DNA from: Escherichia phage phiC120
DNA: 64,000 nt
Sequence record: KY703222
Reading direction: 5' to 3' (one strand)
Part shown: piece after piece, positions 43,899 through 44,354 of the stretch
Layout: each line of letters opens with the position of its first letter
Position numbering within the stretch: position 1 is the stretch's first letter
Made by a program: the position numbers and the translations under genes
The notes under the pieces: generated by a model
What the model was told of the DNA's origin: nothing
The model's input: the letters and a program-made list of their open reading frames with translations, nothing else
The model's database searches: none

Positions 43899-44354
43899 TT
43901 ATTTTAGATCTTCGGCCCAATCTAGTTTTAAGGGTTCTTTGTATTCACGGTCGAGAATAACCGGAATAGCTACATCACCACTGAATGATAGTTGGCCAAC
44001 GTTATATGATAACGTTATATGTGGAGTGTAGTCGTCGAAATCATGAGTAGCACCTAAAGCTCGTGCGTACTGATGACGACATCTAAGATATTCGGAATCA
44101 AGAACTAAAACCAGTACAGCGCCGTCATCGGTTTTCCATACCTCAAGGTGTCCTGATTCGGCAACAGAATAACTACCACTAGATGTAGTATATGGTATGT
44201 TTACACGTGAATAACAAATTGTCGAATGAAGCTTTTCACGTGGTACTGGATTAGGAATTCTTAATTTACGCTGGAGATCTTCCAGCGCATCAAGTGTTAA
44301 TTCTGAAAACTTAGCTGCGACGTAGAGGCCTTGTGAAAAGTCCTCAAATTTCAT
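43899..44354 (-). CDS. 57B: Gp57B / Acb1-like 2H phosphoesterase (anti-CBASS cyclic-oligonucleotide phosphodiesterase)
   Basis: 151 aa; two H-x-T/S motifs (HSTICYS and HITLSY) typical of 2H phosphoesterases; T4 57B position and size. Confidence 0.75.

Follow-up and report, generated by a model that had tools for sequence, protein, structure and literature searches.

The window analysed here, 64,000 nucleotides of Escherichia phage phiC120 (sequence record KY703222), carries an intact reading frame of 151 codons plus stop at positions 43899-44354 on the minus strand that starts with ATG and is assigned to acb1, the orthologue of T4 gene 57B, by membership in Pfam family PF23474 and by its identity to T4 Acb1 and MM02gp156. 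The earlier note had described a product of 151 amino acids with two short motifs at exactly these coordinates, and both strings are real: HSTICYS comprises residues 43-49 and HITLSY residues 112-117 of phiC120 Acb1. Immediately downstream of acb1, ipI (43534-43821, minus strand; Pfam IPI_T4, 165 bits) encodes internal protein I, an inhibitor of the GmrS/GmrD restriction enzyme. On the other side, acb1 is preceded by gene 57A for the tail-fibre chaperone (44354-44584, minus strand; Pfam GP57, 85 bits) and by gene 1 for dNMP kinase (44589-45323, minus strand). The complete order, ipI-57B-57A-1-3-2-4 with all genes on the minus strand, agrees with that of T4, and the T4 57B position proposed in the earlier note is correct in that acb1 resides between ipI and 57A, with genes 1, 3 and 2 following. 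The adjacency of ipI and acb1 in T4 has been regarded as a small anti-defence cluster (PMC9117128). A 3-1-57A-57B order is retained in T4-like phages of Acinetobacter, Aeromonas, Vibrio, Klebsiella and Yersinia. We consider a 57B-like genomic position supportive of Acb1 membership, albeit not strictly defining.

The TAA stop codon of 57A shares one base with the ATG start codon of acb1 (GAA TAA TG AAA), and the corresponding junction in phage Bas47 is identical. In T4, the annotated start of 57B is one codon longer and the 57A/57B overlap amounts to 4 nt (ATGA) as compared to 1 nt (TAATG) in phiC120. The one-base overlap suggests co-transcription and translational coupling of 57A and acb1. The annotation of acb1 in Bas47/AlbertHofmann (1499-1957 of the segment compared) includes one codon too many and places the start at ATA.

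A T4-type late-promoter motif, TATAAATA, was found by a motif scan inside gene 1 and thus upstream of 57A and acb1 (44939-44946, minus strand). This motif is present six times in the whole window against about nine expected occurrences, i.e. not above chance, and the weight of the copy in gene 1 lies in its position, which is conserved with T4, where gene 1 features the motif in the equivalent relative place (5006-5013 of the T4 segment compared). A role of this site as a promoter is predicted and fits the middle/late expression that has been reported for T4 57B. When the region 43300-46100 was scanned for sigma-70 promoters and terminators, sites did not exceed those in shuffled sequence, and no sigma-70 promoter was detected directly upstream of acb1. 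Between acb1 and ipI, an intergenic spacer of 77 bp (43822-43898) features a sigma-70-like TTTACA-17-TACTAT element with an extended -10 TG (43884-43856, minus strand), and a Shine-Dalgarno sequence, AAGGAAAT, precedes ipI. It is plausible that this site downstream of acb1 serves as a separate early promoter for ipI. Elsewhere in the window, two copies of TATAAATA are arranged back to back with a spacing of 8 bp (47350-47357, plus strand, and 47365-47372, minus strand). An equally spaced pair is present in the divergent intergenic region between genes 4 and 53 of T4 (7350-7357, plus strand, and 7365-7372, minus strand, of the T4 segment compared). Both paired motifs in phiC120 lie inside a listed reading frame for 197 amino acids (46889-47482, minus strand), the start of which is probably over-extended.

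Two tRNA genes, tRNA-Arg(tct) and tRNA-Met(cat), are located at 41871-41947 and 41954-42027 on the minus strand and were the only hits in a scan of the window against Rfam at gathering thresholds. MM02 carries the same tRNA pair and the PhAPEC2 record lists three tRNAs, while T4 contains eight tRNAs, segB and the small RNAs rnaC/rnaD at this position. A TTG-started reading frame for 130 amino acids (41508-41900, minus strand) overlaps tRNA-Arg by about 30 nt. It encodes the homologue of RB69ORF150c, which is annotated with a length of 345 nt in PhAPEC2 and MM02, and the true start is therefore probably an internal ATG around position 41852 (MKGNVYLV..., 114 amino acids), a choice that removes the overlap with the tRNA gene.

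The window contains a further gene with a predicted role in the removal of cyclic nucleotide signals. A homologue of the sponge protein Acb2/Vs.4 with 88 amino acids is encoded at 28124-28390 on the minus strand (Pfam PF24729 Acb2_Tad1_hairpin, 65 bits; PDB 7UQ2, E=1.9e-30). The gene is situated between regB (27389-27847) and homologues of vs.5/vs.6. The frame as listed (28124-28558, minus strand) runs up to a TTG, specifies 144 amino acids and overlaps a vs.5-like reading frame (28380-28604); the 88 residues aligning to T4 Vs.4 (7UQ2) begin at the ATG at 28390, and an 81-residue coding sequence is annotated in PhAPEC2. Judged from these matches, phiC120, like T4, carries predicted homologues of both the degrader Acb1 and the sponge Acb2. 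Both types of protein remove CBASS signals, but Acb2 (T4 Vs.4) has an unrelated fold and sequesters the signals without hydrolysis. NCBIfam holds no model for Acb1 or Acb2.

The region is of the Mosigvirus type. It exhibits 98-99% identity to PhAPEC2, Bas47/AlbertHofmann and RB69, and the best match is phiE142 with 99.4%. The protein encoded by vB_EcoM_WFL6982 is 100% identical to phiC120 Acb1, and a tblastn search returned Acb1 homologues from 1,469 phage genomes that have been deposited. MM02gp156 was named Acb1 by Doherty et al. (2025; PMC12657230), who also termed Bas46-47 MM02-like. MM02gp156 from the Mosigvirus vB_EcoM_MM02 (QBQ79204.1, MM02_00156) has the same length as phiC120 Acb1, resides in the same ipI/57A slot and is identical in 150 of 151 positions, the sole substitution being F in MM02 for L70 in phiC120; databases list both proteins as 'hypothetical protein'. 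The acb1 gene of phiC120 is thus an already described anti-defence gene, the Mosigvirus copy of which has already been named Acb1 in print. The family as such was discovered in 2022, and our assignment amounts to the correct annotation of a known gene and not to a discovery.

A pair of HxT motifs is by itself weak evidence; the match of the whole protein is far beyond chance. The Pfam Acb1 profile (PF23474) is hit with 198.1 bits (E=7.4e-59) at a gathering score of 27 bits, with residues 8-149 covering profile positions 1-144 out of 144. T4 gp57B (NP_049750.1, from NC_000866) and phiC120 Acb1 share 130 of 151 residues (86%) without gaps. The structures of Acb1 from Erwinia phage FBB1, 7T26 (apo) and 7T27 (with 3'3'-cGAMP), were matched with E=3.5e-59 over residues 9-148 at 64% identity and with a single one-residue gap. 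The FBB1 enzyme features the same HxT/HxT tetrad and aromatic cage as phiC120 Acb1, although it stems from a phage of another host genus, and it is the sole structural template since the PDB search yielded no entry for an Acb1 of the T4 or RB69 type. A compact 2H phosphoesterase fold is predicted on the basis of 64% identity to 7T26 over 140 residues. A single-sequence AlphaFold2 model of phiC120 Acb1 was too poor for fold confirmation (mean pLDDT 40.9, pTM 0.31).

The residues that matter for function have been established for T4 and FBB1 Acb1 (PMC9117128). In T4 numbering, H44, T46, H113 and T115 form the catalytic HxT/HxT tetrad, and an H44A/H113A variant of the T4 enzyme is catalytically dead; Y12, W74, F107 and W147 are the aromatic residues on which the nucleobases stack, E141 reads the adenine N6 and C-terminal residues 145-152 build a lid, as derived from the FBB1 structure (PMC9117128). 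Numbering in phiC120 Acb1 equals that of T4 minus one, and all nine catalytic and ligand-binding residues are kept (Y11, H43, T45, W73, F106, H112, T114, E140 and W146), such that none of the 21 substitutions between the two proteins affects a functional position. By residue mapping, the first catalytic motif, H43-S44-T45 (T4 H44/T46), is encoded at 44220-44228 and the second, H112-I113-T114 (T4 H113/T115), at 44013-44021, both on the minus strand. The predicted lid is untruncated and consists of residues 144-151 (43902-43925, minus strand) including W146 (T4 W147); it reads LDWAEDLK in phiC120 and LDWADDLK in T4, with one conservative change from D to E at position 148. In addition to these residues, phiC120 and T4 have the gene neighbours and the position of the late-promoter motif in common.

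We aligned ten homologues with identities down to 27% that stem from six genera of the Straboviridae and from two phages without genus assignment, with hosts in the genera Escherichia, Erwinia, Yersinia, Acinetobacter, Aeromonas, Vibrio and Klebsiella. Residues H43, T45, H112, T114 and Y11 proved invariant and E140 nearly so. Lack of conservation of the catalytic histidines had been singled out beforehand as a result that would speak against the assignment, and both H43 and H112 are conserved. The homologue from Klebsiella phage KP27 (Slopekvirus; 1459-2082 of the segment compared) is extended to 207 amino acids. Its catalytic tetrad is intact and some 55 residues follow the lid at the C-terminus, an extension that is absent from the nine other aligned sequences. 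For phiC120 acb1, dN/dS amounts to 0.066 relative to T4 (dS about 1.9) and to 0.058 relative to Bas47, values that place the gene under purifying selection.

The phiC120 protein itself thus provides evidence in the form of family membership, conservation of functional residues, synteny and purifying selection. Taken together, we regard it as very probable, judging from sequence comparison, that the reading frame encodes a functional Acb1 and represents the Mosigvirus (RB69-type) orthologue of T4 gp57B. The earlier note had identified the protein as an Acb1 homologue, and this assignment is borne out by HMM membership, the HxT/HxT tetrad, the stacking and adenine-reading residues, the lid, synteny and purifying selection. 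Its further statement that T4 gp57B (Acb1) degrades CBASS signals agrees with the work of Hobbs et al. (2022; PMC9117128). There, activity-guided fractionation traced the degradation of 3'3'-cGAMP in infected cells to T4 57B (PMC9117128), and this activity was lost in a lysate of T4 delta-acb1. To be cut by Acb1, a ring must consist of two to three nucleotides and contain one adenosine or more, while cGG and cA4 are left uncut (PMC9117128). 3'3'-cGAMP and cAAA were both cleaved by each of the nine additional homologues tested (Hobbs et al., 2022; PMC9117128). Work with T4 delta-acb1 established in vivo that Acb1 shields the phage against CBASS, and transposon sequencing revealed 57B as dispensable on K-12 and as depleted on a CBASS host. 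Activity has thus been measured for T4 gp57B, while enzyme activity, substrate range, anti-CBASS effect and timing of phiC120 Acb1 are those we infer from work on the T4 and FBB1 proteins; neither the supplements of Hobbs et al. (2022) nor the literature searched yielded a biochemical or genetic assay of an RB69-type Acb1.

The database names point in another direction. PHROG 755, to which the family belongs, is labelled 'RNA ligase' and many RefSeq records repeat this label while others read 'hypothetical protein'; among the records we looked at, only those of 348Ecol098PP, Metamorpho and AM101 call the family phosphodiesterase. Together with the location of acb1 near the phage tRNA cluster, this would be in line with a general 2H enzyme acting on RNA, either a LigT-like 2'-5' RNA ligase or a 2',3'-cyclic phosphodiesterase for RNA ends, e.g. 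in tRNA repair. LigT/2'-5' RNA ligases and cellular 2H phosphoesterases indeed have two HxT/S motifs, metal independence and a 2',3'-cyclic phosphate in common with Acb1, and in a permissive Pfam scan of phiC120 Acb1 (E up to 10) the 2'-5' RNA ligase superfamily was the only other family that emerged. The match to 2_5_RNA_ligase2 (PF13563) is weak, however (15.0 bits, E=0.026); it stays below the cut-off of 27 bits and is confined to residues 76-131, whereas the match to Acb1 reaches 198 bits and is full-length. Membership among the LigT/RNA ligases was rejected on the grounds of this partial match with 15.0 versus 27 bits, which reflects a motif shared across the superfamily. As the sub-threshold match comprises just 56 residues, the 'RNA ligase' label is a carry-over at the level of the superfamily and no functional assignment, and we found no experimental basis for the name. 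Unlike LigT-type enzymes, Acb1 is a compact single domain in which a lid and a cage of aromatic residues accommodate cyclic oligonucleotides. In phiC120, the residues binding cyclic dinucleotides are all conserved, and the T4 orthologue was identified through the very activity on 3'3'-cGAMP that disappears from the delta-acb1 lysate, rendering an RNA-directed enzyme very improbable.

Given an Acb1, the 21 substitutions relative to T4 might have shifted the substrate range towards narrower or different signals, possibly tuned around the decoys of Panoptes. Selection for altered specificity is held plausible in the literature, substitutions at positions 76, 79 and 80 follow W73 and the change from D to E at position 148 falls into the lid. 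On the other hand, all known ligand-contact residues are unchanged, homologues that are much more divergent all cleaved 3'3'-cGAMP and cAAA, and MM02, the Acb1 of which differs by one residue, is listed as Panoptes-sensitive, though MM02 also carries Acb2 (PMC12657230). We judge a range that departs from that of T4 for this reason as scarcely probable. The related claim that the substrate profile of RB69-type Acb1 measurably differs from that of T4 through the 21 substitutions is likewise rated low, as quite unlikely, because the ligand contacts are unchanged and more divergent homologues act like T4 Acb1. Such a profile may, for example, consist in less action on the Panoptes decoys 2'3'-c-di-AMP/cA3 or in action on signals that are spared by T4 Acb1. 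If true, it would constitute a natural case of specificity being tuned as anti-defence genes and guard systems compete. Even less probable, to the point of being barely conceivable, is an acb1 gene that is unexpressed or a decayed remnant comparable to the nonsense allele of Bas43. It is true that a phage can do without acb1 on hosts lacking CBASS and that natural loss-of-function alleles occur, which are selected by Panoptes. In phiC120, however, the frame is intact over its full length with all catalytic residues present, the dN/dS values relative to T4 and Bas47 speak for continuing purifying selection, and the overlap of the 57A stop with the acb1 start is combined with a conserved late-promoter motif upstream. 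A pseudogene was accordingly rejected on the basis of frame, catalytic residues and dN/dS.

The reading of phiC120 acb1 as a gene for a functional Acb1 leads to the following model. The protein would be a small, metal-independent 2H phosphoesterase that captures cyclic di- or trinucleotides with 3'-5' linkages and at least one adenosine. The bases would be stacked between Y11, W73, F106 and W146 and the adenine would be read through E140, upon which the C-terminal lid would shut over the ligand. Acb1 would then strain the ring, with H43/T45 and H112/T114 making the 2'-OH of the adenosine attack the 3'-5' bond, and the ring would open with a 2',3'-cyclic phosphate as intermediate and yield a linear product with a 3'-phosphate. 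With the signal removed, CBASS effectors should stay switched off and the abortive-infection response should fail. Most likely, acb1 is transcribed together with 57A in the middle/late phase and its translation is coupled to that of 57A. The expectation that phiC120 counters cyclic-nucleotide defences appears reasonable by analogy with T4 when narrowed to signals that are adenosine-containing cyclic di- or trinucleotides, since cGG and rings with more than three nucleotides (cA4) are not substrates of Acb1.

Possession of such an enzyme comes at a price. Expression of T4 Acb1, but not of its H44A/H113A mutant, suffices to set off type I Panoptes (PMC12657230), while deletion of acb1 from T4 was without effect in another study. 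Tevenvirinae that carry Acb1 are restricted by type II Panoptes, and those that escape have mutations in acb1; a natural nonsense allele of acb1 is found in phage Bas43. As Acb1 can trigger Panoptes, carrying acb1 is a trade-off. Equipped with acb1 and an Acb2 homologue, phiC120 should resist CBASS systems that signal via adenosine-containing cyclic di- or trinucleotides and should conversely be vulnerable to guards of the Panoptes type that sense the loss of such nucleotides. The widespread labelling of the Acb1 family as 'RNA ligase' or 'hypothetical protein' is out of date, and annotation of acb1 and Acb2 is useful for the prediction of host ranges and for the choice of therapeutic phages.
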